In this document: positions 14,061-43,848 of the stretch, one piece after another
Layout of the letters: each line of letters opens with the position of its first letter
Numbering within the stretch: position 1 is the first letter of the stretch
Source of the DNA: a virus
Taxonomy: Duplodnaviria > Caudoviricetes
Virus record (IMG/VR): IMGVR_UViG_3300027972_000016
Coordinates: 1 to 52,534 of that record
DNA length: 52,534 nucleotides
Reading direction: 5' to 3' (one strand)
Made by a program: the position numbers and the translations under genes
Notes under the pieces: generated by a model
Told to the model about the DNA's origin: nothing
The model's input: only the letters and a program-made list of their open reading frames with translations
Databases searched by the model: none

Positions 14061-14090
14061 TAAATTTATCAAGTTTATTTTGTATATTAA
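14061..14090. promoter_or_regulatory. TAAAT-N7-GTTTA box adjacent to a TTTTGTATATTAA promoter-like motif
   Basis: TAAAT-TTATCAA-GTTTA at 14061-14077 and TTTTGTATATTAA at 14078-14090, in the intergenic region before the scaffold/MCP operon. Confidence 0.5.
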
Positions 14091-14114
14091 AAGTATAATT
14101 AAAAACCAACAACA

Positions 14115-15380: not shown

Positions 15381-15409
15381 TTTAGTAACAAACAAAAACA
15401 AACAATAAA

Positions 15410-17029: not shown

Positions 17030-17046
17030 TAATAAACAAATTAGAG

Positions 17047-17074
17047 AAGGAGGAGGTAAATCTCCTCCTTTTTT
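17047..17074 (+). terminator. Rho-independent terminator after MCP
   Basis: AAGGAGGAG-GTAAAT-CTCCTCCTT followed by TTTT. Confidence 0.85.
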
Positions 17075-17109
17075 AATATATTTAACCAACAATTAAAAAC
17101 CAACAACAA

Positions 17110-18126
17110 ATGGAAAATTTTACAATGGTAGAAACTGGTAAAGGTGCTATCAAAAAAACAGCTATTGCTGTAAGACCTTATTTTGATAAAACTGCATCTA
17201 ACATGGGACTTGAGTCTTATGGTATGAGCATGTTTGATGGAATAAAACATAATGAACAACTTGCATGTTTAGATAACAATGGTGTAGTAAGATACATAAC
17301 CGGACTTAATGAATTTGCACCTGAAATTAAACTCCTTCCTACAGAAGAAAGAGAAGCTAGGATAAGAGAGATAAGAAATGCAATAGCTGAATTAGAAAAA
17401 GAATTAGTAGCTAATGTATTAGAAGTAGAAGATCCAATGTTCTGGAATAAAGTTAAGTTGTTACAACCTAACAATGCAGAGTTTTGGAATAAGATTACTA
17501 TTGGATGTGGTAATGAACCATTATATTTAAATCCAATTGATCCTTATGATAGAATTAAACTTTATGCAATTGAGGCCGGAGGGTTTTCAATAGTTGCAAA
17601 AAGTTATGAGGATGCAAGATCAAAAGCAGTTCCACCTAAATTTTATTTAGATAAGGAAGAAGAAACTGTAATGGTAAGAACTGAGTATAAAAAACTTAGA
17701 AATAAAGCTCTTGCAGAATTACAAAAATTATTTGATAAAAATAGTACTAAACTATTCTACATTGCAAAAGTTGTAGATATCAATAGTACACAATATAAAA
17801 AATCTACACCAAATGATGTTATCTATGAGAACATGGATAGATATATTAATGGTGAAGGAGGAGAGACTAACAAGGAAAGAGCAGCCAAATCATTTACGGA
17901 TGCAGCTAATTTAGACATGGAAGCATTAAAAATTAAGTCAATTGTTAGGGATTCTGTTTTTTTTAAGTATATTGTTAATAAGGCTGATGGTTATATATAT
18001 CATACTAAATCCGGAGCTATGCTTGGAAGAAATGTATCTGATGTAATAGAGCACTTGAAAAACCCTTTAAATGAGGATGTTTTAAAAGATCTTAACCAAG
18101 CTTGTGAAAAATATTGGAACTCTTAA
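17110..18126 (+). CDS. Conserved crAss-like protein following MCP, function unknown
   Basis: 338-aa ORF in the syntenic position immediately after MCP. Confidence 0.6.
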   Translation: MENFTMVETGKGAIKKTAIAVRPYFDKTASNMGLESYGMSMFDGIKHNEQLACLDNNGVVRYITGLNEFAPEIKLLPTEEREARIREIRNAIAELEKELVANVLEVEDPMFWNKVKLLQPNNAEFWNKITIGCGNEPLYLNPIDPYDRIKLYAIEAGGFSIVAKSYEDARSKAVPPKFYLDKEEETVMVRTEYKKLRNKALAELQKLFDKNSTKLFYIAKVVDINSTQYKKSTPNDVIYENMDRYINGEGGETNKERAAKSFTDAANLDMEALKIKSIVRDSVFFKYIVNKADGYIYHTKSGAMLGRNVSDVIEHLKNPLNEDVLKDLNQACEKYWNS

Positions 18127-18138
18127 AACTAAAATAAA

Positions 18139-18324
18139 ATGGCAACTTACACTACAGGGAAAATTAAAAACCCAAATGCAAAAGTAACAAAACAAACAAC
18201 TCCTAAAGGTAGAGTTGGTGGAACATCTGTTGCACCAGGTAAAGAAGCAGTTAAATCTGCTAAACCAAAAGGAAGAGTTGGTGGAACTAGTACAGCACCT
18301 AAAAAAGCATCTCCTTCTAAATAA
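18139..18324 (+). CDS. Small basic protein with internal repeat
   Basis: 61 aa, K/T/P-rich, with PKGRVGGTS(V/T)AP present twice. Confidence 0.65.
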   Translation: MATYTTGKIKNPNAKVTKQTTPKGRVGGTSVAPGKEAVKSAKPKGRVGGTSTAPKKASPSK

Positions 18325-18354
18325 GGAGATGTTTTAATTTTAAATTTTATTATT

Positions 18355-23439: not shown

Positions 23440-23478
23440 AAAGGAGAGTGAGAGTTTCAAACTCTTCTCTCCTTTTTT
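23440..23478 (+). terminator. Rho-independent terminator
   Basis: AAGGAGAG(TG)AGAGTT-TCA-AACTCT(T)CTCTCCTT followed by TTTT. Confidence 0.8.
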
Positions 23479-24060: not shown

Positions 24061-24078
24061 ACTTAAAAACCAACAACT

Positions 24079-24273
24079 ATGTCAACATGTTCAAATTGCA
24101 AAGGTAGAATGTCTTGCGGATGTCAAAGAAGGACAGCAAGCAATGGTGTTCAATGTTGTTCTTCCTGTGTTAAAGGATATGAGCAATCATTAAAAAAAGA
24201 TAAACAAGGTACAGAACTTTTAAATACTGTATCAAAAACTATTTGGGGAAAGAATAGATTTACAAATAAATAA
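24079..24273 (+). CDS. Small Cys-rich (metal-binding) protein
   Basis: CSNC...CGC...CCSSC within 64 aa. The leader contains AACCAACAA. Confidence 0.6.
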   Translation: MSTCSNCKGRMSCGCQRRTASNGVQCCSSCVKGYEQSLKKDKQGTELLNTVSKTIWGKNRFTNK

Positions 24274-25809: not shown

Positions 25810-25844
25810 GAATATTTTGTATATTATATAATATAAGTAAAGAT

Positions 25845-29445: not shown

Positions 29446-30714
29446 ATGGCAAATACAAATTGTAAAAAGTGCGGGTGTCAAGATAAGTTCTTAACTCCAG
29501 CACCATGTCCAGAACCTCAAGGATGTCCTCAGCCTGAAAATTGCTCAGAGATATTTAATGCAGGTTGTATAGAATATACAGGAACTAACATTACATGTGA
29601 TGATGAAATTATTGTAGCTACTGGAGATAGAGTATCTGATGCGTTAATTGCTATAGCAGATCTTGCTTGTAATAGTGCACCTCTATGTAATATACAAGTT
29701 ACTATAACTAGTCAATCTGAGTATTTTCCTATATTAGAATCTAATATAGTAGGAGGAACAGCTCCTTATACATATAGTTGGAGTATAGTACAAGGACCAT
29801 TTGTAGGTCACACTATAATTGGAGTAACTAATGCTGCTGATTTAAATTTAGAGTGTATAGGTGCAAATGGTTTACAAAATGGAGAAGAAACAGTTAAAAT
29901 ATCTAGTATAAGATTAGATGTTACTGATGCTGCTGGATGTAAAGAATCTGTATATTATACATATGCTAGTCCATGTTATCCAATATTTACTAGACTACAA
30001 CCGGCTTTACCTCCATATGCAGGTGGACAGGGTGTTGAATTTTTTCCTATACCTTATGGTGGTATTGATTTTATGGATGATGTAACACAAATGCCAACAT
30101 GTGAAGAGTTAACAACTATGATATGTCCAGATTCTGAAACTTATGATATGGAAGAAACTGAGTTTGAAACAGCTAGAGATACATTTAATTATTATACTTA
30201 TTCTAATTTAAATGCTGAGTATTATGGTCTCCCTAATAATGATCCTATAGATTATACAATATATGAACCAGGAGAATTAGGTGATCAATTAGTATTTTAT
30301 AAAGGAGGATTAAAAACTGTAAATATATCATATGCCTGTCCTGCATCTACTTATGTTGGATGGACAACACCAGATCTTTTATTAGGTGGAGACAGTGTTG
30401 CAGATAGACTTCCCACTGTAGTTAATATAACTTGGTTAACTGCTGTTGCTAATGTTGGTTTATTACCTGTTACAGCACAACCTGGAGATGCTATTAAAGA
30501 TTTAAACACAAATATTAAATATTTATGGGATCCAACCTTAACTGCTTGGAGTCAAGATTTATATACAGCATATTTTACTAAAGTTGGAAATACTAAAGAA
30601 TATCAAATTGCAGTATTAAAAGCAGCAACTGATGCTGTAATAAGATCTATGAGACCTTTTACATGGGCCGCTGATTATGCTCCATGCCATAGATTAAGAA
30701 AAGAAATTATATAA
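29446..30714 (+). CDS. Chimeric fibre-like protein (Cys-rich N-terminus, Ig-like domain, domain shared with 26884..27774)
   Basis: The N-terminus is nearly identical to 28873. GGTAPYTYSWS...LDVTDAAGC is Ig/SprB-like. The C-terminal half is paralogous to 26884. Confidence 0.65.
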   Translation: MANTNCKKCGCQDKFLTPAPCPEPQGCPQPENCSEIFNAGCIEYTGTNITCDDEIIVATGDRVSDALIAIADLACNSAPLCNIQVTITSQSEYFPILESNIVGGTAPYTYSWSIVQGPFVGHTIIGVTNAADLNLECIGANGLQNGEETVKISSIRLDVTDAAGCKESVYYTYASPCYPIFTRLQPALPPYAGGQGVEFFPIPYGGIDFMDDVTQMPTCEELTTMICPDSETYDMEETEFETARDTFNYYTYSNLNAEYYGLPNNDPIDYTIYEPGELGDQLVFYKGGLKTVNISYACPASTYVGWTTPDLLLGGDSVADRLPTVVNITWLTAVANVGLLPVTAQPGDAIKDLNTNIKYLWDPTLTAWSQDLYTAYFTKVGNTKEYQIAVLKAATDAVIRSMRPFTWAADYAPCHRLRKEII

Positions 30715-30724
30715 AAAATTAAAT

Positions 30725-31294
30725 ATGGCAGGAAGTTTAAATTTAATTGCTGATTATTATAATAATGGTTTTATTGGAAATTGCAATCCTTTATATTCAG
30801 AGCCTATAACAGCTAATGCTTGGTTTGTAGCAAAACAAGCATTTACTCAAGAAAGAGACACTCATAATGCAGCAGCAAATGCTTTTTTTCAAGCAGCTTT
30901 TGCTATGAGATTATCTTATGATGGAGATGATCAAATTCCACCTAACTGTTTTACAACAGCAGGGATTGCTATTATAGAAGATGCTTATTATGGACCAACA
31001 GGTTGGTGGGAAAAATCTTTTGACTTCCGTAAAATATCAATGTTATTTTGGAACTCATTACAACAAGATCCATATAAATTTTATGGTACTTCCACTAATT
31101 TTATAAATAAACCATTACCAGACGGTACAAGTGTACCTGTTAGTTGGGTAACTGATTATGATTTATACCCTACAGTTACAAGAGCACTATATGAAGAATA
31201 TAGAACTAAATTAGAAAGTCAAATGCATGCACTTAAAGTATTATTTAAATTAATAAATAATGATACTTTTCCAACCTTTAATATACCGTCTTAG
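30725..31294 (+). CDS. Hypothetical protein
   Basis: 189-aa ORF, last gene before the hairpin/terminator. Confidence 0.65.
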   Translation: MAGSLNLIADYYNNGFIGNCNPLYSEPITANAWFVAKQAFTQERDTHNAAANAFFQAAFAMRLSYDGDDQIPPNCFTTAGIAIIEDAYYGPTGWWEKSFDFRKISMLFWNSLQQDPYKFYGTSTNFINKPLPDGTSVPVSWVTDYDLYPTVTRALYEEYRTKLESQMHALKVLFKLINNDTFPTFNIPS

Positions 31295-31332
31295 TTAGTT
31301 AGTTGCAGTTTGTTGGTTACTGTAGCAACAAC
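31294..31332 (+). ncRNA. Candidate structured regulatory RNA hairpin with loop UUGUUGGUU
   Basis: GTT-A-GTT-A-GTTGCAGT [TTGTTGGTT] ACTGTAGC-AAC-AAC pairs into a long stem with G-U pairs and two bulged As. The loop is the reverse complement of the leader motif AACCAACAA. Confidence 0.45.
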
Positions 31333-31367
31333 GGCAGAGCCCCCGCACTTGTGGGGGTTTTGTTTTT
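31333..31367 (+). terminator. Rho-independent terminator
   Basis: GGCAGAGCCCCCGC-ACTT-GTGGGGGTTTTGTT followed by TTT. Unusually GC-rich for this window. Confidence 0.85.
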
Positions 31368-31371
31368 ATGG

Positions 31372-31407
31372 TATATTTGTTAAAGTCATATATTTTTAGT
31401 ATATTAT
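31372..31407 (+). promoter_or_regulatory. Promoter-like elements for the ring/muzzle operon
   Basis: TATATTTG (Bacteroidota -7 consensus TAnnTTTG) at 31372-31379 and TTTTTAGTATATTAT at 31393-31407. Confidence 0.4.
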
Positions 31408-31408
31408 T

Positions 31409-31990
31409 ATGAAAGAATTTAAAAAACCAGATGTAACTGCACCAAGATTTAGACCTGAAGTTTATAACATTTTAAACAAAGAGTTCTTTGAAAAATTTAA
31501 AATAAAATATCCAAAGTATAAGAACATTGGAAACAAAATTTTAAAGAATTATGCAAAGACATTTAACAAGATGGTATATCAGACAGTAATAGATACAAGA
31601 GATGGTGTACAGTTACCTGAACAAATTGGATGGTTATTTATTGGGACTTGTCAACAAAGTAAAAAACAGAATACTGACTTTGCAAAATCCCGGACATATG
31701 GTATGAGAGTTTCAAATAATAATTGGGCTACAGATGGAAAACTGGCCAAGATATTTTTTACAACTTATGCACCAAAACATAAAATTAAAAATAGAGAATT
31801 CTGGTCTTTTGTAGCATGTAGAGATTTTAAAAGAACAGTAGCTAAAACATATCCTGAAAATTGGAACATGTATGTAGCAGTTGACAACTTACAAGAATTA
31901 AAATTAATCTATAATAAAGCTTTATATAAAGACTATAGAATCAAACAAACTAAGGAAGCTTTAAAAAATTATAATGAGTTTGAATTATGA
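31409..31990 (+). CDS. Divergent IHF/HU-like protein of the crAss-like tail module
   Basis: IDTRDGVQLPEQIGWLFIG resembles the HU beta-arm. Its position before the ring/tubular genes fits crAss-like synteny (recalled). Confidence 0.55.
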   Translation: MKEFKKPDVTAPRFRPEVYNILNKEFFEKFKIKYPKYKNIGNKILKNYAKTFNKMVYQTVIDTRDGVQLPEQIGWLFIGTCQQSKKQNTDFAKSRTYGMRVSNNNWATDGKLAKIFFTTYAPKHKIKNREFWSFVACRDFKRTVAKTYPENWNMYVAVDNLQELKLIYNKALYKDYRIKQTKEALKNYNEFEL

Positions 31991-32658
31991 CAACAATAGG
32001 TGAAGCAGTATCAAGAGTTAGAAATACACTAAAAGCAGTTAAGGAAGATGCTTTCTTAACTGACAGAACTATTTATTATTCTTTATATAAATATGGTCAA
32101 ACTCTATTAAAAAGAGAAGATAACCAATATAAACTTATGAAGATAAGTTCAATATTTTCTGTTTTACCATATGTAGAGTTAATTGATGTAGATAGAGTAC
32201 AGGCAGGATGCGTTGGTGTATACTCTGGATGTTATTTCAAAAGATCAAAAGAAAAAATTCCAAATATATTAAGTGGATCATTTGGTCCTATTATCCGTAC
32301 AGTATCATCAATAGATGGTATGACAGAAATGTTCCGTACAGAACCTGGTACATGGGTTTCAATTACAAAATCAACTACATACAAATATAACAAAAGACAA
32401 TACTTTTGGTTCTTAGATGGTTATTTATATTGTCCTAATGTAGATTGGGATGCTATAAAAGTTGAAGCAATATTTGAAGGTGATACTTCTGGTCAAACTT
32501 GTGTTACACAAGATGACTGTAAAATTAGACAAGATCAACCATTACCTTTTCCAGAATATTTATTTTCTGAAATTGAACAGTTTGTAATAAAAGAATTAAC
32601 CATGACTATGCAAGTTCCATCTGATGGTTCTGATGATGGTCAAAACTCATTAAGATAA
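31987..32658 (+). CDS. Tail ring protein
   Basis: 223 aa, ATGA-coupled, with YFWFLDGYLY...VEAIFE...FP. Syntenic with crAss-like ring genes. Confidence 0.55.
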   Translation: MTTIGEAVSRVRNTLKAVKEDAFLTDRTIYYSLYKYGQTLLKREDNQYKLMKISSIFSVLPYVELIDVDRVQAGCVGVYSGCYFKRSKEKIPNILSGSFGPIIRTVSSIDGMTEMFRTEPGTWVSITKSTTYKYNKRQYFWFLDGYLYCPNVDWDAIKVEAIFEGDTSGQTCVTQDDCKIRQDQPLPFPEYLFSEIEQFVIKELTMTMQVPSDGSDDGQNSLR

Positions 32659-33713
32659 TGGACTTTAACTATACACTTAAATATAGAACATTTGACCAGT
32701 TGCTGGAAGATGTTACTATTGATCTACATACTTTTGCTTTAGAGAATATGATAGAGCCTCAACAGCTTATCAAGTTAGCTAGAAAAATAAATTATGATTT
32801 AGGTCTAAGAATAAATCAAACTAAAGAAGAAGTTCTTGAAGTTTGTCATGGTAGAGTAAAATTACCTGATGATTTTTATGTTTGGAACTTTGGTATGACT
32901 TGTCATGAGAGAACAGAACATGTTGGTTATGATGGTATGGTTGGTGGTACTAATATACAAGAAGTACCATATCCTGCTGTAAGATACAATGAAGTTCCGG
33001 GATCAGTTGATATGTGTGCTGCTCCAACTGTAAATTGTAGGACTTGTAATTCTAATCCTTGCAATAATACCGCAGCTTGTGATCTTAATCATCCTATAGT
33101 AGATCCTATACCTACCTCTGTAGATCCTAATAATCCTTTTGGTAATACTTGTATTGCTCCAAGAGTATTTATGAACTGTAAAGGAGATAAGTATGAATTG
33201 ATCCAAGTAGTTAAATCTGGTTTAACCAGAAGCTATAGAGCATTAGTTCCACTAAGAATGAAAGCTAGTCAAGAAATAGATTGTGAATGTCCTAATCTAT
33301 ATTACAATGTATCTGATGAAGGTTGGATAAAAAATGGATTCTTATTTACAACATTTCAAACTGGTACAGTATATATCAATTACCAAGGAGAGATGACAGA
33401 TGAAACTGGTAGTTTAATGGTACCTGATCATCCAAGACTAAATGACTATTATGAGTATGCATTTAAGAAAAGAATACTAGAAAATCTTTATCTTAATGGT
33501 GAAGATGTAGCACAAAGAATACAACTGATAGCTCCTGAATTAAAAGAAGCTAGAAACAATGCTTTAAGTTTAGTAAATACACCAAACTTTAAAGAGCTAG
33601 AACAAATGTGGTGGACAAACAGAAGAGCTCAATACTCTAAATACTATGATATGTTTAAATCATATTCATCTGGCAATTATACAAGATTGAATTTCAACAC
33701 TAGAGTTCTTTAA
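32658..33713 (+). CDS. Tail tubular (ring) protein with a Cys-rich insertion
   Basis: GRVKLPDDF...IKNGFLFTTFQTGTVYINYQG...LMVPDHP...YYEYAFKKRI, immediately upstream of the muzzle-like gene. Confidence 0.65.
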   Translation: MDFNYTLKYRTFDQLLEDVTIDLHTFALENMIEPQQLIKLARKINYDLGLRINQTKEEVLEVCHGRVKLPDDFYVWNFGMTCHERTEHVGYDGMVGGTNIQEVPYPAVRYNEVPGSVDMCAAPTVNCRTCNSNPCNNTAACDLNHPIVDPIPTSVDPNNPFGNTCIAPRVFMNCKGDKYELIQVVKSGLTRSYRALVPLRMKASQEIDCECPNLYYNVSDEGWIKNGFLFTTFQTGTVYINYQGEMTDETGSLMVPDHPRLNDYYEYAFKKRILENLYLNGEDVAQRIQLIAPELKEARNNALSLVNTPNFKELEQMWWTNRRAQYSKYYDMFKSYSSGNYTRLNFNTRVL

Positions 33714-33715
33714 TT

Positions 33716-36700
33716 ATGGCAAAGAAAAATTTACAAGATACTTCTAAAGCAATCACAAACAGTTTTATAAAAGGTCTTAACAAAGATGCTGATCCATCAT
33801 ATGTAACAGAAGGAATGTGGACCCATGCTATCAACATGGTTAATAACTCTAAAATAGGTAAAGTTGGATCTATATCTAATGAGTCTGCAAACTATATTTG
33901 CTTTACTACAGGTTTAACTATGCCACTTACTGTAACTGAGAAATTAGTTATAGGAGTAATATATTTATTTTCTGATAAATGGATTGTGTTTACTGCTGGT
34001 CATGATTCTCAAGGTAGACCTATTTCAGCTGAGATAGGTTTATTTGAAGAAGAGTTATGTTTATACAGACCAATTGTACAAGATCCATGTTTAGCATTTG
34101 ATAAAAGATTTTTAATATCTGGTGCAGCAAGACTAAAATCAGATTGTTCATGGCAAGTGTATTGGGCAGATGGATTAAATCCTGATAGATATTTAAATAT
34201 TGGTGATCCAAAATCTTGGCCTCCTAGTAATTATATTTTTAATGGAGGTACTGGTTTAAATGGTAATTATTACATAGGACCTGCTGGAAGCAAAATACTT
34301 TGGCCAGGTGTACAATGGAATCAAAAATGTACAGATGAAAATGAAATAGTTGTTCCTAAACTTAATTATACTCCTATAGGTTGTATAACTTGTACAAATC
34401 TTAATACTCTTGATTGCACTAGAATAAGAATTGCAAGATTAATGGAAACTCCATGTTTAAATCTTAAACTTGGTGTTCAAGGTGGTACATTAGCTAATGG
34501 TACTTACTTTGCAGTTATTGCATATTTGATTGATGGTCAAAGAGTTACAGATTATTTTTCTCAAAGTAATAACCAACCAGTATTTTATGTAAATGATTTA
34601 GCTGGTTCATTAGATCTTGATGTACATGCAGATTCAGATAACTTTGATGAATTTGAATTAGTAATAGTTCAGAATATAAATCAAGGTACTGTAGCAAAAA
34701 GAATAGGTAATTATTCAACTAAGACAACAAGAATATCTATTGATCAAATTAATCCTTCAAACATAACTGTACCATTAGAACAATTACCTATTGTTACTCC
34801 TGTATATGAGAAATCTGATCAAATGGCTCAACTTAATAGTTATTTGTTAAGAGTTGGTCCAACATCTAAATTTGATTTTAACTATCAACCATTAGCTAAT
34901 TTAATTCAAGCTAAGTGGGCTTCAGTAGAATATCCTGGTGATTATTACATGAAAGGTGGTAACAAAACTAATTACTTGAGAGATGAGGTGTATGCATTTT
35001 TCATCCGCTGGGTATATGACACAGGAGATAAATCTCCTTCTTACCATATTCCAGGTAGAGTTCCTAGAGATTTTAATATTCCTGGTAGCGGAACAATAAA
35101 TGAAACTGCAACAATATATGCACAAGATTCATTAACTACTGATGATAAAACATTTGAAGTATTTAATACTGCTAGCGTAACAACTGGCTCATATGTTGGT
35201 ACTACTACTGATGATGGAGGTACTGTACTTGCTGTAGGAGATATGGGTTACTGGCAGTCATCTGAAAAATATCCAGATAATAGAGCTGATATATGGAATC
35301 CAAGTTATTACTGCTGGACAACTCCTGCTGGTAAAACTGGTGTATATGATCTATGTGGTAAAAATATTAGACATCATAAGTTTCCTGAAGATTATATCAA
35401 TGGAAGTACTAATACTAATGTAACTCATTTTGCATCTAATCCTAATCCTGCTACAGTAGGTAGTCAATATACTATAAGGTTATTAGGTGTATACTTTGAG
35501 AATATTATATTACCAAAAGATAATGATGGTGTTGATATTCCAGGTCTTGTTGGTTATGAAATATTAAGAGGTTCTAGAGAAGGTAATAAAACAATTATTG
35601 CCAAAGGAATGGTTAACAACTTTAGAACCTATAAGTTAAGAGGAGCAATAGGAACTAACCGTACAGGACTGTATGCTAATTATCCATTCAACACTATTAC
35701 ACCTATAACAAGTCCATTAAATGGTCATGCTGCAGGAGTTAATGATCCTTACATACAGTTAAGAGATGCTGATGATAATTACTATAGTCAAGAGATACCG
35801 GAAGATATATTTACTTTCCATTCTCCTGATACTATGTTCCGTACTCCATTTCTTTCTACACAAGAATTTAAGTTGTATGGAGTATTATCTGGTTATAGTA
35901 ATCAACAGTTTCAAGAACCAAGTCAACATCCTAGATTTAAATTACTAGCTGATGATGCAATAAAACCAATGCTTTTACTAGGTATTGCTGAAGCAATTGT
36001 ATCTATGGTAGGTAAAAGAACGGATTCAACACCTAGCATTATTCCTGCTACAGGTGTATCTGATGGTTTAGCTGTTGCTTATGGAGCATATGTAACTGCA
36101 GCTACAGGTCTGCAAACTTTACCAACACCTTTAACTTCTCCAATAACATTATACAATACATTTTTTAATAACTATTATTCATCAGGTGCAGCTATTGCGG
36201 ATATTGGACTAAGTCTTTTAAGTTTACCAACTACAGTAGACGTTGCTGAAGGACTTATAGTAACTGCATTAAATGCTACTTCTATTGCTCAAGTTAATGC
36301 GCCTATTATTAGAACAGGTACAATTGAGTTACCTGACTATGCTTATTTACCAGGGCCCTTAAAAATATTAGGAGGACTAAATCAAGCTTTGTTTTATTTT
36401 TCTGAAGGAGCCGATATAGCATTAAGAATACTATATGCTTCTACTTCTTATAAACAATATGCATTACAACAAATAGCATATGGTTATTATGGAACAATGA
36501 CTCCTCCTTCAATTAATAATCTTAGAAGATTTAAAATTGAAGATAGTTTTTACTTAAGAGATAACATACAAGAAGTTAGTAGATATCAAAATAGTTCTGG
36601 TGCATATGTATCTTATAATATTAACAATCTTAAAAGATCTGCTTCAGTTGTAGTAAGAACAGTAAGTGGTCCTTATAAAGATGCAAGTAAACCTAATGGT

Positions 36701-39145
36701 GTAACTACAGGTCCATATTTATTACCAGATGATAAATCTTTAACTACACTCGGTGGTGTTGTTCAAGGTAATCAATCATATTTTTTACCAGGTACATTAC
36801 CTACATTTGAAAGACCTACATTACCTTTTAGTTTACCAATTCAAAGTCATTATGGAGCTTTAAAAGGTAGAGTAAGAAATCAATATGGTCAACTAGACTC
36901 AATTAAACAAATTGTAATTACTCCTTGTGAACAAACATTTAATACTAATGAAATAGTTCCTACAGGACCAACTATTTGTTTAACCAAACCGTATTTATAC
37001 AAAACAATACAAAGAACTCCTATATTATTTGGAGGAGATACTTATATAAATAGATATACTGAAAAGAACAATATGATGTTCTTTTATGATTGGTTGTATG
37101 ATCAACCTGATGGGTTTGAATATAACTACTATTTAAGAAATATGATTCCTAATCCTAGGTTTAGGCTCAATAGTACTTTGTATGATGTTCAAAATTTAGC
37201 AAGTTTAATTTCTTTTAGTGCAAGTCCTAGTCCTGGTACTGGAGCATTACCTTCTATTTTTTATAATCTTGATTATTACTTTGATAGTATTAGATTTTAT
37301 AATTATAATAATGATACATTAGGAAATCCAGAGGCATTAGCAATTCTATTAGGAACTTATGACGGATTATTTTCTGTTAAAAAGGCTTTCTTTTATTTAG
37401 CTAATTCATCTATAAGAGATTTCTTTGTAGAGAGTGATGTTATTGTAGACTTTAGTCAACAAGGTGAAACTATTGGAGAAAAGCATTATGATCCATATAG
37501 ATACACTGATTACTTTGCAATGTTTGATATGAACCCATTAGTAATGGGTAGAAACAGTGCATACATATATGATTACTCATTAAGTGTATCTAAGTTATAT
37601 AACCAATATTTTTCTGCAGGTCTTACACAAAGTAGATATTATGATCCTAATGTAGCTGCATTATGTTTTACTTATTATCCTAACAGAGTAATATATTCAT
37701 TACCTCAACAAAATGAATCAGTAAAAGATAGTTGGTTTATATATTTAGCAAATAACTATAACCAGTTTTTATCACAAATCAGTGGTGTAAAAGCTATTAA
37801 TAAAAGTGGGGTTATCTTTACTTTTAAAAATGATAGTCCTGTAATGTATCAAGGTGTTGATACTTTACAAACTGATTTAGGTACCAAGATTACAATTGGA
37901 GATGGTGGATTATTTAGTCAACCTCAACAAGCAATCACTAATGCTGATAAAGCATATGAGTATGGAGCATCACAAAATAGACTGTCTGTTATATCTACAC
38001 CAGTAGGTATATATTATATGTCTCAAAGTGCTGGTAAAGTATTTAGTTTTGGAGATGGTTTACAAGAAATATCTCAGAATGGTATGAAGTGGTGGTTTAC
38101 TTTATTCTTACCATATAAATTAACTGAAGATTTTCCAAATTATCCTTATCAGGATAATCCAGTTGCTGGTATAGGATGTCAATCTGTATATGATAATACC
38201 AATGGAGTATTATACTTTGCTAAGAAAGATTATAAACTTAAATCAGAATATGAAGGAAGAGTAACTTATGTTCCTTTAAATCTAAATGGTACAGGAGATT
38301 ATTTCTTATTAGATGGAAACTCAGCTCAGTTCAGAATAGGTAATCCATTTTTATTTGATGATGCATCTTGGACAATTAGTTATGATCCTAAAAATCAGTT
38401 CTGGATTAGTTTCCATGACTGGCATCCAGATTTATTAATTCCAACAAAAGATGTATTTATTTCCACTAAGAAAAATGGAGGTTGGAGACATAATTGGTCA
38501 TGTACTAAATTCTGTAACTACTATGGTACAGATTATGCATGTGAAATAGAGATTCCAATTGTTACTGGTCAAAATGTAATGACTACTAGATCAATAGAAT
38601 ACATACTTGAAGCATATAGAAGATCAAACCATAACTGTGTAGATCAACATCATGTATTAGACTTTAACTTTGATACAGCTGTTATTTATAACTCAGAGCA
38701 AGTATCTGGTTACTTAAACTTAAATATATATCCTAAGAATGATATAAACTTAAGTAGACAGTATCCTAAACTAAATGCTAACAATTCTTCATTTGATATA
38801 CTCTTTTCTAAAGAAGAGAATAAATTCAGGTTTAATCAATTTTGGGATATAACTAAAAATAGAGGTGAGTTTCCAATTGGTTCTAACTATCCTCCTACTG
38901 GACCTGTTATTCCTGGTACAACAGTATTGAATGGTAATTATGAATCTCAGAATACATGGATTACCGCTCCTGATGGTTATACTAGAATATTAAATCCTAA
39001 TAACTTAAGTTATAATAAGTCAGACCTTCAAAGAAAAAAATTCAGACATTACTTGAATTTCTTAAATTTGAAAAGAAATGTATCTAATGACATCAACTTT
39101 ATATTGAAAGTTAGTAATAGTAAAAATGAAATATCCTTCAGATAA
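33716..39145 (+). CDS. Tail stabilisation/muzzle (nozzle) protein
   Basis: 1809 aa. N-terminal FIKGLNKD, YLRDEVYAFFIRW, HHKFP, FGGDTYINRY and WTISYDP...WISFHDW.P are consistent with the crAss-like beta-propeller nozzle. Confidence 0.75.
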   Translation: MAKKNLQDTSKAITNSFIKGLNKDADPSYVTEGMWTHAINMVNNSKIGKVGSISNESANYICFTTGLTMPLTVTEKLVIGVIYLFSDKWIVFTAGHDSQGRPISAEIGLFEEELCLYRPIVQDPCLAFDKRFLISGAARLKSDCSWQVYWADGLNPDRYLNIGDPKSWPPSNYIFNGGTGLNGNYYIGPAGSKILWPGVQWNQKCTDENEIVVPKLNYTPIGCITCTNLNTLDCTRIRIARLMETPCLNLKLGVQGGTLANGTYFAVIAYLIDGQRVTDYFSQSNNQPVFYVNDLAGSLDLDVHADSDNFDEFELVIVQNINQGTVAKRIGNYSTKTTRISIDQINPSNITVPLEQLPIVTPVYEKSDQMAQLNSYLLRVGPTSKFDFNYQPLANLIQAKWASVEYPGDYYMKGGNKTNYLRDEVYAFFIRWVYDTGDKSPSYHIPGRVPRDFNIPGSGTINETATIYAQDSLTTDDKTFEVFNTASVTTGSYVGTTTDDGGTVLAVGDMGYWQSSEKYPDNRADIWNPSYYCWTTPAGKTGVYDLCGKNIRHHKFPEDYINGSTNTNVTHFASNPNPATVGSQYTIRLLGVYFENIILPKDNDGVDIPGLVGYEILRGSREGNKTIIAKGMVNNFRTYKLRGAIGTNRTGLYANYPFNTITPITSPLNGHAAGVNDPYIQLRDADDNYYSQEIPEDIFTFHSPDTMFRTPFLSTQEFKLYGVLSGYSNQQFQEPSQHPRFKLLADDAIKPMLLLGIAEAIVSMVGKRTDSTPSIIPATGVSDGLAVAYGAYVTAATGLQTLPTPLTSPITLYNTFFNNYYSSGAAIADIGLSLLSLPTTVDVAEGLIVTALNATSIAQVNAPIIRTGTIELPDYAYLPGPLKILGGLNQALFYFSEGADIALRILYASTSYKQYALQQIAYGYYGTMTPPSINNLRRFKIEDSFYLRDNIQEVSRYQNSSGAYVSYNINNLKRSASVVVRTVSGPYKDASKPNGVTTGPYLLPDDKSLTTLGGVVQGNQSYFLPGTLPTFERPTLPFSLPIQSHYGALKGRVRNQYGQLDSIKQIVITPCEQTFNTNEIVPTGPTICLTKPYLYKTIQRTPILFGGDTYINRYTEKNNMMFFYDWLYDQPDGFEYNYYLRNMIPNPRFRLNSTLYDVQNLASLISFSASPSPGTGALPSIFYNLDYYFDSIRFYNYNNDTLGNPEALAILLGTYDGLFSVKKAFFYLANSSIRDFFVESDVIVDFSQQGETIGEKHYDPYRYTDYFAMFDMNPLVMGRNSAYIYDYSLSVSKLYNQYFSAGLTQSRYYDPNVAALCFTYYPNRVIYSLPQQNESVKDSWFIYLANNYNQFLSQISGVKAINKSGVIFTFKNDSPVMYQGVDTLQTDLGTKITIGDGGLFSQPQQAITNADKAYEYGASQNRLSVISTPVGIYYMSQSAGKVFSFGDGLQEISQNGMKWWFTLFLPYKLTEDFPNYPYQDNPVAGIGCQSVYDNTNGVLYFAKKDYKLKSEYEGRVTYVPLNLNGTGDYFLLDGNSAQFRIGNPFLFDDASWTISYDPKNQFWISFHDWHPDLLIPTKDVFISTKKNGGWRHNWSCTKFCNYYGTDYACEIEIPIVTGQNVMTTRSIEYILEAYRRSNHNCVDQHHVLDFNFDTAVIYNSEQVSGYLNLNIYPKNDINLSRQYPKLNANNSSFDILFSKEENKFRFNQFWDITKNRGEFPIGSNYPPTGPVIPGTTVLNGNYESQNTWITAPDGYTRILNPNNLSYNKSDLQRKKFRHYLNFLNLKRNVSNDINFILKVSNSKNEISFR

Positions 39146-42100
39146 TGGGAAATAGAAAAGAACTCATAAAAGCTACAAGAGAATTAGATAAAGCTAAAGC
39201 TCCTAAGAAACAAAAAGATATAATCACTGATCCTATGGGTCAGTGGAAATATCCTGGCCAACCAACTAGAATCCCTGGTAGTGATATTACTATGCAGGGA
39301 GTTAATTATCCTGTTATGGCAGTAGCAAGTACTGGTCAAAAACAAATGATGGTACCTGGTGCTGAGTATACATTTCCTGGAGCTGACTATGTAGATGAAT
39401 TTCCTCAGATGAAAAAAGGAGGAGGATTAAAAAGAGGAACTACAAAGAGTCTTTCAGGAACTAATAAGTTAATGAAGAAGAATCCTTTGTTTAAGAATTA
39501 TAAACATAAGTTATTTGATCCTAAGTCTAAACATTTTCAAAATGGTGGTATTAGAAAATTTGATGAAGGTGGTGATACAGAATCTACAACAGCACCAAGT
39601 AAACCATCAATAAGCCCAAAAGAACAATATCAAAATACAATAAAGAATAATTATAAAACATATTTACAATCTGTAAACAATGTTACTCCTTATACAAAAG
39701 CTACAAGAGAAGGAGAAATGAATTGTATACATGGTGTGTGTACAGTTATAGAAGGTTCTGGTGCTAAAAAGTTTGATAGTGAGTATATTGGTAACATGAC
39801 TTTTAATGATGCTAGAAAAAAAGAAGGCTATTATGAGGTAGATCCAAAAATTGAAGGTTTTGAAATAGGTGATATTGTACAATATGCAAGAACAAAAGCA
39901 AATGCAGCTTCTGCAGGAAGATTTAAACCAGGTAGTTCATTAACTCCAGTTAATAAAGATGATCTTATTCCGCAACATGCTAAAGTAATTTTAAATAAAT
40001 ATGTTGATGAAAATAACATTACCAGATATGTAGTTGGTCATAATGAAGGTACAGATAAATTTCTTATAAGTAAAGATGATGATGGTAATGATATAAAAGA
40101 AGAAACTTTATTTAAACATTATTTAGATGGCTATAATACATATGATGGACTTATTGTAAATAGATATGATCCAGAAGCAGTAGAAAAAAGAGAAAAAGAA
40201 AAAAGAACAAAGCAAGATATCATATTTGGGAAAAATAGTTATGCTAATATGTATAATGAAAAACCTGAAATAGTTCTCAAACAAGAAACCTTTGATGATA
40301 AGTTTAATAAAAAAATTGTAGAAAGTTCTGGTAAAAGAAAAGAATTATTAAACTATTACAAAAACAATTATAACAAGTTAGGTAAAACAGCAAACATGCC
40401 ACCTTCTGTTTTAAATAAATTATTTCATAATCAAATAGGTATAGCAGAACAAGAAAGTAAATTAGGTGAAGATTTAGGTATGAAAAATATTGTTCCTGAA
40501 AACTTACTTCCTACAGCAAGAAAACTAAAAGAAGCAACATCATCAAATGATGATTGGATAAAAGACTATTGGCAAAAAAATGCTAATAATGTTAAAACTC
40601 AATATAAAACTATTGATGATTTTAAAAAACATTTAAGTAGCAATAGTAAACTTAGTAAAGAAGCTAAAAACTATTTGTTTTATAATAGTCCAAAAAGTAA
40701 AGGTGTTTTTCAACAAAAAGAACTTTCAGAAAGAGGTAAATTATTAGGTTCAAACTTTGATACAAAAGAAAATGAGTTTTTATCTTCTATGTATTTAGCT
40801 ATTGATAACTATAGTATATTAAAAAATAAATATCCTGATTTATCAGAAGATGAATTAGTTGATCTTACTACTTTAATGCATAATGCTCCAGGAAAAGCTT
40901 TAACAAAAGAATATGTAGATTATTACTTAAAAAATAATGATATAGATTATGTAAATAAAGTTAAAGATCAAAGAGGTGTTATGGAAGTACCTGAGAAAAA
41001 ATCATTATCTAAATTAATACAAAATACTAATGATAATAAAAATAAACTTACAGATCAAGAAGCAGATAAATTAAAAAAATTTATAAACAGTAAACTACCT
41101 GCTAAACAAGATGGTGGTATGACAGGTATGATGAAAGGTAGAATTGCAACTGCTGCTCATTTTGGTAATCCAGCTGCTCAAAGAATGGTGAGTCCTAATC
41201 CTAAAAAAGGAATGACACCTGAAGGTGAAGGTACTCATTACATGGCAAGTATGGGAGAGTATGTTGTTCCATTCTTACAAGATAAAGGAGGAAACCGTTT
41301 AGAGTATAATGAAAATCCAGCACCAGGTAGAGAAGATATGAAATTTAATTCTCCAGAGGAAGCTGCTTATTTTGCAGAGCACTATAAAGAAGTTGCTCCA
41401 ATGATGAAAAATTATATAGAAGCAGAACTTACAGATGATGAAATAGAAGAATATAGAAAAGGTGGATATATTGTTGAAGATATATCTGTTCCTTCTTTAA
41501 ATCAGAGACAAGAGGGTGGAACTGAAAAACCTATTAATGCAGCTAACCCTTATTGGATACTAGATGAAGGAGAACCATTTAAAGTTAGACCATTTGATGC
41601 TCAGCTAGAATATAATAAAGCTAATCAAACTTTTGAGAATAGAATACCACAATCAGGTATGATAGAAGAAAGTGATATAGATCCTACAGATGTATTAAGC
41701 TTAGGAGCTGGTTTAGCTAAAACATTTGGTAAAGGTATTAGTAAAGCTTTATTAAAATCTGGAGCAAGAAGATTAGTAACTAAAAGTATAACACCTATTG
41801 GTTATGATCCATTTACTATAGCAGCTGCTCCTTTAGAATTACTTACACCAAAAGCATTAAAATTTAAACCAAAAACATATGCTACTAAAAATAGATATGA
41901 TGCATGGAAATTATATAATGGTTTAGAGCCTGAATTTAATACTTTTTCAAAAAATTTAGATGGTACATTAGCAATAAATGATTTTAGATTAAGTAAATAT
42001 AACTTACAAAATATAATTGATAATCCTAAAAAATCATTTGGTACTACAGACATAAAAAATGAATTTAATTTTGGAGGTGTTCATGGAAATGGATGGATCA

Positions 42101-43848
42101 CAAAAGGAGTAGATGAGAAAGGTAAAAAATTTATTGATTTTACAGATACTTGGGATTTACAACCTTTAAAAAATGTGAAAGGTTTACCTGATAAACTTAA
42201 AGAATTTGAAGTATCTTCTTTAACAGGAGGAAAACCTTTTGATTTAAAGAATAGAATTTATTATGATGATGCTGGTAATTTTTTTGATCATAAAGGAACT
42301 AAACTTGTTGAAGAAGTTCAACATTTTCCTAAGGGGATTGTGAAACAAAATGAAGCAGTAGATGAAATAATGTTAAGTACACCAAATGTTGTTGGAACAA
42401 AACAAATAGATGTATTAAAAGATTGGAACAAGGCAGTTAATCAAAAATTTTTTAAAGGGGCAGCTGCAGGATTTGGAAGTGTATTTGCAGGTCTAGAGTA
42501 TCATCTTAATAAATTAAAAGAAAAATCAAAAAAAGATTTAGATAAAAAAGCATATGGAGGTACTATAAAAAAGTTTGGTAAAGGAGGTAAAAAAGATTTA
42601 GATATATCAGTTAATCCAACTAAGCAACCATCTGCTTTTACTTTTACACCTTCTAGAATTCCAGGTAGTAAACAAGAGGCAGAAAGTATGTTAGCCTCAG
42701 GAGAACTTAAAGAAAGAAGTAATCCTCTTACTAAAGAAGATGTTAAACTTGCAGTAGATGCAGCTAGTGTAGGATTTTATCCAGCGGCAGTATTAGGATC
42801 CGCAATGGATGCTGCTGAAGGAAATTATATATCAGCGGCTTTGGGTTTAATACCTGTAGTAGGTAAAGCAGGTAAGCATGGAAAATTTTGGGGAAAAGCT
42901 TATACTAAAGCTATAAATGCAGGAGTTCCTAATGCTATTGCCTACCCCGCAAAAAAATATGGTAAAGCTTTTACACAAGGAAGTTCTATTGGTACTAATA
43001 TTCATGATGTTTATAATGATTTTAATCAAAACAAAAAAGCATATGGTGGATACATGCAAGAAGGTGGTATTAAAAATACACTTACTTTTCAAGAAGATGA
43101 AGAATCTACTTTATCTGATGAAGAATTTTTTAATCAACCTAATGAAAATGAAATATCTGATAAACCTACAAGATCAATGTATATTAGTGATCCAAGAAAA
43201 ATAAGAGCTACAACTGGTAAAAAAATAAGACCTAATGTTGATTTAAAAAGTGGAGAATATGATGTAGATGCAATTGAAAAATTAGCTGAATATGCAGTTT
43301 TAAGAGGTATAAATCCATATAGAGCAATTGCACAAGCATTGGCAGAATCAACTTTAGGAACAAAAACTCCTGATAATGTTGGTCATACCCGTCATGGTAA
43401 AAATAAAAACATGTATACTAATATGATGGATGCTATTATAGAAGGAGATTCATTAGCTAAAGTAAAAGGAAAAACTAAACCAGAAGAAATTATACAAGGA
43501 TATAATAGATATGGTAAGTTAACTTCTGATACTGAAAAAGATTATCATGGTGGTAAAGTTACTGGATTTTATGGTGTAAAGTTTCCAAAAGAAACAGGCT
43601 ACTTAGATATGAATAAAACTCCTTTGTATGGAATAGAAGTATTGGATTTACAAAAAAATGTACTTGAACCTAATGAAAAGATTAGAAGTATTGTACAACC
43701 ACAGCTACATCCTAGACCTCCGAAACCTGCAATACAGTACTTTAATAAAAATAGACCTGAGTTCTCTAAAGGTGGTGTAGTTGCTAAACTGAGTCAGAAA
43801 GAAATTGATGATTATATAAAACAAGGTTATATTGTAGAAGAAGAATAA
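39145..43848 (+). CDS. Multi-module internal virion (cargo) protein with NlpC/P60-CHAP-like and two lysozyme/SLT-like modules
   Basis: NCIHGVC...IGDIVQY...QHAKVI; GIAEQESKLG...SKGVFQQK...MHNAPG; AIAQALAESTLG...QGYNRYG. Modules are separated by xxxGG motifs. Follows the muzzle gene. Confidence 0.55.
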   Translation: MGNRKELIKATRELDKAKAPKKQKDIITDPMGQWKYPGQPTRIPGSDITMQGVNYPVMAVASTGQKQMMVPGAEYTFPGADYVDEFPQMKKGGGLKRGTTKSLSGTNKLMKKNPLFKNYKHKLFDPKSKHFQNGGIRKFDEGGDTESTTAPSKPSISPKEQYQNTIKNNYKTYLQSVNNVTPYTKATREGEMNCIHGVCTVIEGSGAKKFDSEYIGNMTFNDARKKEGYYEVDPKIEGFEIGDIVQYARTKANAASAGRFKPGSSLTPVNKDDLIPQHAKVILNKYVDENNITRYVVGHNEGTDKFLISKDDDGNDIKEETLFKHYLDGYNTYDGLIVNRYDPEAVEKREKEKRTKQDIIFGKNSYANMYNEKPEIVLKQETFDDKFNKKIVESSGKRKELLNYYKNNYNKLGKTANMPPSVLNKLFHNQIGIAEQESKLGEDLGMKNIVPENLLPTARKLKEATSSNDDWIKDYWQKNANNVKTQYKTIDDFKKHLSSNSKLSKEAKNYLFYNSPKSKGVFQQKELSERGKLLGSNFDTKENEFLSSMYLAIDNYSILKNKYPDLSEDELVDLTTLMHNAPGKALTKEYVDYYLKNNDIDYVNKVKDQRGVMEVPEKKSLSKLIQNTNDNKNKLTDQEADKLKKFINSKLPAKQDGGMTGMMKGRIATAAHFGNPAAQRMVSPNPKKGMTPEGEGTHYMASMGEYVVPFLQDKGGNRLEYNENPAPGREDMKFNSPEEAAYFAEHYKEVAPMMKNYIEAELTDDEIEEYRKGGYIVEDISVPSLNQRQEGGTEKPINAANPYWILDEGEPFKVRPFDAQLEYNKANQTFENRIPQSGMIEESDIDPTDVLSLGAGLAKTFGKGISKALLKSGARRLVTKSITPIGYDPFTIAAAPLELLTPKALKFKPKTYATKNRYDAWKLYNGLEPEFNTFSKNLDGTLAINDFRLSKYNLQNIIDNPKKSFGTTDIKNEFNFGGVHGNGWITKGVDEKGKKFIDFTDTWDLQPLKNVKGLPDKLKEFEVSSLTGGKPFDLKNRIYYDDAGNFFDHKGTKLVEEVQHFPKGIVKQNEAVDEIMLSTPNVVGTKQIDVLKDWNKAVNQKFFKGAAAGFGSVFAGLEYHLNKLKEKSKKDLDKKAYGGTIKKFGKGGKKDLDISVNPTKQPSAFTFTPSRIPGSKQEAESMLASGELKERSNPLTKEDVKLAVDAASVGFYPAAVLGSAMDAAEGNYISAALGLIPVVGKAGKHGKFWGKAYTKAINAGVPNAIAYPAKKYGKAFTQGSSIGTNIHDVYNDFNQNKKAYGGYMQEGGIKNTLTFQEDEESTLSDEEFFNQPNENEISDKPTRSMYISDPRKIRATTGKKIRPNVDLKSGEYDVDAIEKLAEYAVLRGINPYRAIAQALAESTLGTKTPDNVGHTRHGKNKNMYTNMMDAIIEGDSLAKVKGKTKPEEIIQGYNRYGKLTSDTEKDYHGGKVTGFYGVKFPKETGYLDMNKTPLYGIEVLDLQKNVLEPNEKIRSIVQPQLHPRPPKPAIQYFNKNRPEFSKGGVVAKLSQKEIDDYIKQGYIVEEE

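Follow-up and report, generated by a model that had tools for sequence, protein, structure and literature searches.

A conserved hairpin-terminator element at the end of a hypervariable phage gene and its complementarity to the leaders of three assembly genes

We analysed IMG/VR virus record IMGVR_UViG_3300027972_000016 (Duplodnaviria; Caudoviricetes), a stretch of 52,534 nucleotides (nt) that is referred to below as the window. In the gap behind a hypervariable gene it carries a single copy of a plus-strand element, a hairpin with a 9-nt loop and an intrinsic terminator, which is conserved in related phages and has no conserved promoter of its own. The loop is exactly complementary to an A/C-rich word that stands directly before the start codons of three genes, a presumed scaffold gene, the gene next to the major capsid gene and a small Cys-rich gene; the word is conserved in relatives along with the loop, and the duplex between the two is energetically favourable. 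We give about even chances to the reading that the element is an antisense RNA embedded in a 3' untranslated region (3'UTR), which would pair with these three translation-initiation regions and probably repress them. Coordinates of all features are collected in Table 1.

Structure and conservation of the element

The element lies in a 114-nt gap between the open reading frames (ORFs) 30725-31294 and 31409-31990, and its hairpin begins at 31294, the last base of the upstream stop codon. A preliminary description of this DNA had placed here a long stem presenting a 9-nt loop, followed by a strong terminator. Both the coordinates and the fold were borne out: the minimum free energy of 31285-31375 was -36.8 kcal/mol, as compared to a mean of -21.4 for shuffled sequences (z = -4.92), and 0 of 200 shuffles were as good. 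The hairpin by itself reached -9.0 kcal/mol. With a predicted unpaired probability of 0.93 the loop would be an accessible seed. A short A/C-rich spacer separates the hairpin from the terminator, which has the make-up of an intrinsic one: 7 G-C pairs in a stem of 14 base pairs (bp), a 4-nt loop, and then TTTTGTTTTT. Rfam (Rfam 15) gave no match at gathering thresholds over the window; permissive thresholds gave only sub-threshold matches at chance level, the best of which, RF01772 (rnk leader), scored 28.1 bits against a cut-off of 55 and was driven by the terminator-like shape.

A total of 80 loci were fetched via the protein encoded by 31409-31990 (63-74% protein identity), out of 130 relatives in IMG/VR. 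The hairpin, the terminator and a conserved block downstream of it were present in all 80, and the upstream gene was unrelated from phage to phage. Over 57 distinct sequences the nine loop letters were invariant and the stem was variable, and RNAalifold recovered both helices from the relatives. A covariance model built from the alignment of these relatives (R1) found one copy each in the window and in records G001, G003, and G005 (E <= 2e-17), with the next-best match at E = 0.065. In three sets of relatives at increasing distance, R1 matched 4 of 4, 16 of 16, and 4 of 4. It also matched 13 of 33 records picked via the capsid gene of a distant relative, including all three that were at least 90% complete; judged from contig coordinates, most of the remaining records in this set end before the expected position of the element. 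In record G028 the element was present below the R1 score threshold. Over all fetched loci the element was recorded in 171 related phage records with 90 distinct stem-loops, of which 79 contained TTGTTGGTT and all 90 the TTGGT core.

The stem was examined in an alignment of 76 distinct sequences, which was fitted to the model and so favours the structure. In this alignment 98.8% of the cells were paired, 11 of the 14 pairs had changed on both sides, and neither shuffles (0 of 500) nor slid registers approached these values. The terminator showed double-sided changes at all 8 modelled pairs. By eye, the stems of the clades were wholly different from one another: GUUACAG/CUGUGAC, GUCGCAG/CUGUGGC, GUGAUGG/CUAUCAC, GUAGAG/CUCUAC, and GCAAUA/UAUUGC. 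G-U pairs made up 89 of the 456 cells of the hairpin helix. Because the opposite strand, or a DNA cruciform, would have A-C mismatches in place of these G-U pairs, this pattern argues for selection on the RNA of the plus strand, and indicates that the element is a plus-strand RNA structure. Conservation of hairpin and loop in relatives, together with covariation of the stem, had been set beforehand as a check on the element, and both were found.

When the sequences were anchored on the loop, entropy was 0-0.12 bits in the nine loop columns, about 1 bit in the stem, 1-1.9 bits in the flanks, and 1.8-1.9 bits from 21 nt upstream. Since no conserved sequence or promoter is found 5' of the hairpin, the hairpin would have to be transcribed along with the hypervariable gene, as the 3' end of its mRNA. 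Its location between the stop codon and its own terminator (which ends at 31364), without a conserved promoter of its own, is that of 3'UTR-derived small RNAs (sRNAs). Of the two origins considered in the preliminary description, a 3'UTR-derived RNA is therefore favoured by the unconserved upstream sequence, and a stand-alone RNA is disfavoured. The conserved block at 31372-31406 lies outside the RNA element and probably provides gene 31409 with its promoter and leader.

The 5' edge of the hairpin falls on a sharp module boundary, and the sequence upstream of it differs in nearly every relative. The gene at this variable boundary (30725-31294) is perhaps a host-range gene. In distant clades (G011 L252/L253; G048 L454-L456; L255-L258; L457-L536) a conserved gene of 392-399 amino acids (aa) separates the element from the homologue of 31409-31990; the hairpin thus goes with the end of the variable gene and not with the downstream gene. 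A search of 185,579 prokaryote genomes for the 17-nt stem-loop word returned 86 stretches, approximately the chance estimate, and 0 of the 80 loci searched matched R1. In these searches the element was not found outside viral records.

A complementary word in the leaders of three genes

The exact complement of the loop, AACCAACAA, had been described as lying 2-3 nt before the start codons of the scaffold gene, the gene following the capsid gene and the small Cys-rich gene, with a second copy at 17084, and all of these sites were confirmed. Six copies were counted in the window as compared to 1.06 expected, a number that 0 of 100 shuffles reached. The four copies on the plus strand (14104, 17084, 17098, and 24068) are all intergenic, so that the reported absence of the word from coding regions holds for the sense strand. 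On the minus strand it occurs at 31310, which is the loop, and at 35547. The latter site, where the plus strand reads TTGTTGGTT, was judged to be a chance occurrence; it is absent in G001 and G003, and G005 has two extra copies elsewhere. The second copy before the 338-aa gene lies 14 nt upstream of the first, and a longer word, TTAAAAACCAACAAC, is common to all three leaders.

The full complement of the loop (9/9) was present in 3 of 44 translation-initiation windows, against a mean of 0.04 in windows of the same size inside genes. When the nine letters were rearranged into the 83 other possible orders, only shifted versions of the real word reached three leaders. Calculated loop-leader duplex energies ranged from -11.2 to -11.8 kcal/mol for the three targets, as compared to -6.7 for the next best of 48 leaders and a median of -4.25. 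None of the leaders in the window contains a Shine-Dalgarno word. The general enrichment of 8-mers of the target word was uninformative in the window, these being too common in A/T-rich DNA and the gene strands being mixed. A/C-rich runs had also been pointed out before the capsid gene (15410) and before 21784; they exist, but pair poorly with the loop (capsid leader, -6.1 kcal/mol).

A first set of leaders was obtained from 80 loci fetched via the capsid protein (90-95% identity). For the 338-aa gene, 56 of 60 distinct leaders contained exact AACCAACAA within positions -30 to -1, often in two copies; for the scaffold-position gene the count was 45 of 65 distinct leaders. Before the capsid gene it was found in 0 of 56 distinct leaders, the longest match being 6 nt, and the 80 loci contained no TTGTTGGTT on the strand of the genes. 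In the set from a second clade (80 loci), 47 of 59 scaffold leaders contained AACCAACA, and the 338-aa gene kept only AAACCAA (41 of 49 leaders). A few scaffold start codons were mis-called by the simple ORF rule (e.g. L094, L505). The Cys-rich gene carried the motif or the AAACCAA core in G003, G001, G011, and G048. In leaders the word invariably lay on the coding strand and ended 0-5 nt before the ATG. Because strand and position are fixed in this way, and two of the three targets are without a promoter-like sequence, the word appears to act at the RNA level, in the translation-initiation region. Enrichment of the motif in leaders and its conservation at the same three genes formed a second check set beforehand; enrichment was observed, and the sites at the initiation regions were kept in relatives.

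The capsid leader (15380-15409; L081-L160) has a conserved A/C-rich stretch of its own, GTAACAAACAAAAACAAACAATAAA. Since this leader is without a loop complement, the most abundant protein would fall outside the proposed regulon. A CAACAA-like stretch also flanks the hairpin itself, on its 3' side in the clade of the window (31327-31332) and on its 5' side in the second clade (L353, L356-L359), where it pairs with a 3' GUUGG into a basal helix. This flank resembles the target word and could compete with the targets for the loop.

A proposed antisense mechanism and its alternatives

In the mechanism we propose, the hairpin and terminator would end the mRNA of the hypervariable gene 30725-31294 and expose a U/G-rich loop of 9-12 nt. 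This loop is the Watson-Crick complement of the conserved A/C-rich word (A)AAACCAACA(A), placed in the last ~12 nt (second copy ~25 nt) before three start codons. The antisense regulator may work within the long mRNA, or as a stable 3' fragment of ~70 nt left after decay or processing, and its loop would pair over 9-12 bp with the initiation regions, at about -2 to -12 of the start codons. These leaders, which are without a Shine-Dalgarno sequence, presumably need to be free of structure; a duplex over them would block 30S loading and result in less of the three proteins. Repression is likelier than activation because a duplex over such a leader would hinder 30S loading. We infer this direction of the effect, as well as the meeting of both RNAs and the accumulation of a discrete RNA. 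Since the leader of the Cys-rich gene and the hairpin are located between the same two terminators, they may share one transcript, and the other two targets would then be reached in trans.

Evidence from loop-leader covariation was mixed. Neither loop nor leader varies in most clades. Diversity of the loop was found around the 392-aa gene of a distant clade, a gene with 258 relatives (UUUAUUGGUUUU, UUUUAUAUUGGUUUU, UUUAAUUGGUUUU, UUUAGUUGGUUUU, UUUCUUGGUUU, UUUUUGUUUGGUUUU). Most of the variation fell on the third letter before GG, which was G in 25 of 32 distinct sequences, with UUGGUUU invariant. In this variable clade the leaders keep AAAACCAA only and vary after it, and the loop keeps UUGGUUUU only and varies at position -3. 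Given leaders with AAAACCAA and a loop with UUGGUUU, the conserved segments have shrunk to exactly complementary pieces. Where the loop reads ...A-UUGG, the leaders read AACCAAUAA(A) in 4 of 6 genomes, a compensatory change. The AUAU-type loop of L458 forms 13 bp with its own leaders, as compared to 8 bp for the canonical loop, and, by reading, A at loop position -3 never occurred together with C at leader position +3 in 11 A-type genomes. Over all 52 genomes, 0 of 2000 shuffles reached the observed pairing.

A number of results weigh against the antisense mechanism, several of them from the same genomes. The 52-genome result follows clade structure and is not phylogenetically independent. Within the variable clade (24 genomes), shuffled loops formed helices at least as long on average as those observed in 281 of 2000 cases with Watson-Crick pairs only and in 633 of 2000 with G-U pairs allowed, and the shared duplex comes to 7-8 A/U-rich bp only. 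The loop of G048, UUUCUUGGUUU, makes only 7 bp with its leaders, AAAAACCAAAAAA; in L499 the own loop forms 9 bp where the canonical loop would give 11; and three other AUAU-type genomes gain no pairing with their own loop. G005 has the canonical loop, yet two of its leaders read AACCAAACAA. Apart from covariation, a search for RNA runs that contain the sequence gave none, and the leader words were predicted to be only 11-31% unpaired in a 129-nt context. A repressor of abundant structural proteins that is carried on the mRNA of a tail gene would also raise a problem of stoichiometry, unless a stable fragment accumulates. Co-variation of loop and leader across phages, which had been proposed as a check, was significant over all 52 genomes, where it follows clade structure, but not in the variable clade, and is compatible with pairing rather than a demonstration of it. 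Two candidates for compensatory change were given up: G011, the leader type of which is common in genomes with the canonical loop, and G048, where pairing was reduced.

We considered whether the hairpin serves protein binding or stability, either by protecting the 3' end or through a loop bound by a phage or host RNA-binding protein, in which case the leader complementarity would be functionless. Hairpins that proteins recognise typically combine an invariant loop with a covarying stem, the non-significant loop-leader covariation in the variable clade fits this reading, and a position adjoining the terminator makes 3'-end protection plausible. We nevertheless regard it as unlikely. It leaves unexplained an exact loop complement of 9-12 nt at three starts over some 80 distinct sequences, and the parallel shrinking of the loop to UUGGUUU and of the leaders to AAACCAA; the letter orderings, among which shifted versions of the real word alone reached three leaders, speak against it as well.

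T4-type phages have promoter-stem-loop cassettes, and the hairpin, terminator and promoter could likewise form a boundary cassette, a homologous-recombination junction for swapping the upstream gene, with conservation arising from exchange. Conservation does start abruptly ~12-20 nt before the loop and run to the next gene, next to an unrelated upstream gene, and other clades have a different gene after the same element. Exchange would, however, homogenise stem and loop together, whereas the stems diverge with compensatory changes around a fixed loop, and the G-U pattern reflects selection on RNA. As the sole explanation we hold this to be quite improbable; it could hold alongside a loop function and does not compete with one.

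The loop may instead activate, as a Shine-Dalgarno substitute supplied by the phage that tethers the A/C-rich morphogenesis leaders to the ribosome or to a hairpin-bound factor, or that joins the 5' leader and the 3' end. The 3' translation enhancers of plant RNA viruses join a 5' leader and a 3' end in this way. If true, late phage messages would gain preferential initiation where ribosomes ignore Shine-Dalgarno sequences, and we consider this very unlikely.

Two further explanations have little to commend them. That AACCAACAA is recognised as double-stranded DNA by a phage regulator, for example a late-gene activator, with 31310 as an inverted site, would suit a 9-mer found in both orientations and a scaffold leader just 3' of the promoter-like TTTTGTATATTA...TATAAT, but is scarcely credible given a leader word always on the coding strand at 0-5 nt from the ATG, two of three targets without a promoter-like motif, and an inverted copy always in the loop of a hairpin that uses G-U pairs, which are mismatches in DNA. 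Just as improbable is a loop that mimics, as decoy or competitor, a host RNA such as 16S ribosomal RNA (rRNA) with which the leaders pair as an enhancer: the precise conservation of the leader word does suggest sequence-specific recognition and not mere lack of structure, but neither TTGGTT nor any longer part of the loop was found in three Bacteroidota 16S rRNAs (two Flavobacteriaceae, Marinoscillum), a weak test in that these may not be those of the host.

Related RNAs and genome context

The closest parallel to the proposed antisense RNA is GibS, an sRNA of Bacteroides thetaiotaomicron, which is without Shine-Dalgarno sequences; GibS represses its targets by annealing to their initiation regions, is chromosomal and intergenic, is transcribed from a promoter of its own, and carries long seeds in the 5' portion (PMC7366714). 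Both RNAs oppose a conserved single-stranded seed to the initiation regions of mRNAs without Shine-Dalgarno sequences, in the phage as a prediction from sequence alone. Unlike in GibS, the seed of the phage element is a hairpin loop in a 3'UTR and its targets would be the morphogenesis genes of the phage itself. By definition of their class, 3'UTR-derived sRNAs share the terminator of the parental mRNA (PMC7366714). The phage element resembles the class so defined in lying between a stop codon and its own terminator, without a conserved promoter of its own, and with the seed just 5' of the terminator hairpin. It differs in that the parental gene is hypervariable and the candidate RNA conserved, the reverse of what is usual. 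An enterobacterial example of 3'UTR-derived sRNAs is CpxQ.

In Staphylococcus aureus, RNAIII and RsaE pair through C-rich hairpin loops with the G-rich Shine-Dalgarno sequences of several mRNAs. The phage element shares with them a loop presented on a stem against a ribosome-loading sequence common to several mRNAs, one RNA for a small regulon; its loop, unlike theirs, is U/G-rich and would read an A/C-rich leader word without a Shine-Dalgarno sequence. The c4 RNA of P1/P7 and the CI RNA of P4 are phage antisense RNAs processed from the transcript that they regulate, and control immunity or antirepressor genes of temperate elements. They too are phage-encoded and have loops complementary to ribosome-binding-site words elsewhere on the phage mRNA, possibly on the same transcript, but the element described here would act on late structural genes and has no sequence or Rfam relation to them.

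To our knowledge, very few phage-encoded RNAs regulate late genes of the phage itself. Searches of the open-access literature returned no description of the element, neither in papers with its motif words, all of them unrelated, nor in work on phage sRNAs (Bacteroidetes) or crAss-like transcriptomes; nothing was found there on phage RNAs that regulate their own late genes in hosts without Shine-Dalgarno sequences. Loops or seeds that mask ribosome-loading regions, 3'UTR-derived sRNAs and phage antisense RNAs are already known. What is new is their combination, a phage RNA at the end of a hypervariable gene, aimed at the A/C-rich leaders of the scaffold and capsid-accessory genes of the same phage in the absence of Shine-Dalgarno sequences. 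The element occurs in at least 171 environmental phage records, with freshwater, wetland and marine samples among their sources, together with a co-conserved target word at three assembly genes, and is conserved across a large uncultured phage group that shows only distant similarity to its nearest cultured relatives. It offers a directly testable model of initiation control with no Shine-Dalgarno sequence to mask, and suggests a possible coupling of the output of scaffold and accessory capsid proteins to tail-gene expression. By marking the boundary between hypervariable and conserved sequence it also provides a landmark for annotating this phage group, which R1 can find.

The long ORFs of the window are all on the plus strand, in the order terminase, portal, acidic 421-aa protein, major capsid protein, 338-aa protein, small and tail-like genes, and giant ORFs. 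For the 421-aa protein in the scaffold position there was no family match in Pfam or PHROG, and the same held for the 64-aa Cys-rich protein. The latter has the Cys pattern CxxC...CxC...CCxxC and resembles a small zinc-binding protein. The 338-aa protein had no Pfam or PHROG match, and Atlas gave clusters of viral hypothetical proteins only. The hypervariable gene 30725-31294 had no relatives in IMG/VR. The gene 31409-31990 had been called IHF-like, a label that the searches did not sustain: there was no Pfam or PHROG match, and Atlas gave a sub-threshold lead only (PF00216 on 27% of the members of one cluster, score 0.85).

Table 1. Positions of the element, its proposed targets and neighbouring features in the window
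Feature	Position	Strand	Details
RNA hairpin	31294-31332	+	lower stem 31294-31300/31327-31332; upper stem 31302-31309/31319-31326; from predicted fold and covariation
Upper stem of hairpin	31302-31309/31319-31326		GUUGCAGU (31302-31309) / ACUGUAGC (31319-31326)
9-nt loop, proposed seed	31310-31318	+	UUGUUGGUU; DNA word TTGTTGGTT
Intrinsic terminator	31333-31369	+	G+C-rich 14-bp stem 31333-31346/31351-31364, ACUU loop, T-run
Conserved block 3' of terminator	31372-31406	+	TATATTTG (31372-31379), ATTTTTAGTATATTA (31392-31406); 80/80 loci
Scaffold-gene leader	14099-14114	+	AACCAACAA at 14104-14112, 2 nt from ATG 14115; loop duplex -11.2 kcal/mol
338-aa gene leader	17084-17109	+	tandem AACCAACAA at 17084-17092 and 17098-17106 (3 nt from ATG 17110); duplex -11.8 kcal/mol
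Cys-rich gene leader	24068-24076	+	AACCAACAA, 2 nt from ATG 24079; duplex -11.2 kcal/mol
Second TTGTTGGTT	35547-35555	+	inside coding sequence 33716-39145; without hairpin context
Target gene 1, acidic 421-aa protein	14115-15380	+	between portal and capsid genes; scaffold by position and composition
Target gene 2, 338-aa protein	17110-18126	+	directly 3' of capsid gene
Target gene 3, small Cys-rich 64-aa protein	24079-24273	+	8 Cys within first 30 residues
Hypervariable gene, 189 aa	30725-31294	+	5' of hairpin; stop codon 31292-31294
Gene 3' of element	31409-31990	+	130 relatives in IMG/VR
Terminase	9073-11280	+
Portal	11283-14018	+
Major capsid protein	15410-17029	+
Intrinsic terminators found	17046-17074; 18304-18335; 23440-23473; 31333-31364	+

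The nearest cultured relatives of the capsid protein by tblastn were Leptolyngbya phage Lbo-JY46 (28.6% identity) and Cellulophaga phages phi17:2 and phi4:1 (27% coverage); another match was one unannotated human-faecal record (23.7%). With no named crAss-like record among these capsid matches, the crAss-like label given to the phage in the preliminary description is unsupported by the searches. The order terminase-portal-scaffold-capsid with giant downstream ORFs does not discriminate for or against it. The DNA of 30000-33000 had no match in the phage collection.

A promoter-like word, TTTT(N)GTATATTA, recurs in the window (~14078-14094, 25815-25826, and 31392-31406), 3-27 nt before several ATGs, and is kept in relatives. 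Before the scaffold gene (window; L081-L160) it is followed by AAAGTATAA(T). The word is a candidate for the late promoter of these phages, and misfits the Bacteroidota TTTG/TAnnTTTG spacing. The Bacteroidota -7 promoter word TANNTTTG was not enriched in the window (71 copies vs. 83.6 expected), so no claim on the host is made from promoters.

Of the two giant ORFs, 33716-39145 (1809 aa) matched phrog_37948 (virion structural protein) near its C-terminus only, and 39145-43848 (1567 aa) had no match; both could encode ejected or cargo proteins. Among the relatives, record G073 (245,646 bases; L488, L498, L553, L561) is about double the length of a usual genome. It contains two capsid genes, as well as the 392-aa gene twice at separate places, and probably arose when the assembly joined two related phages.

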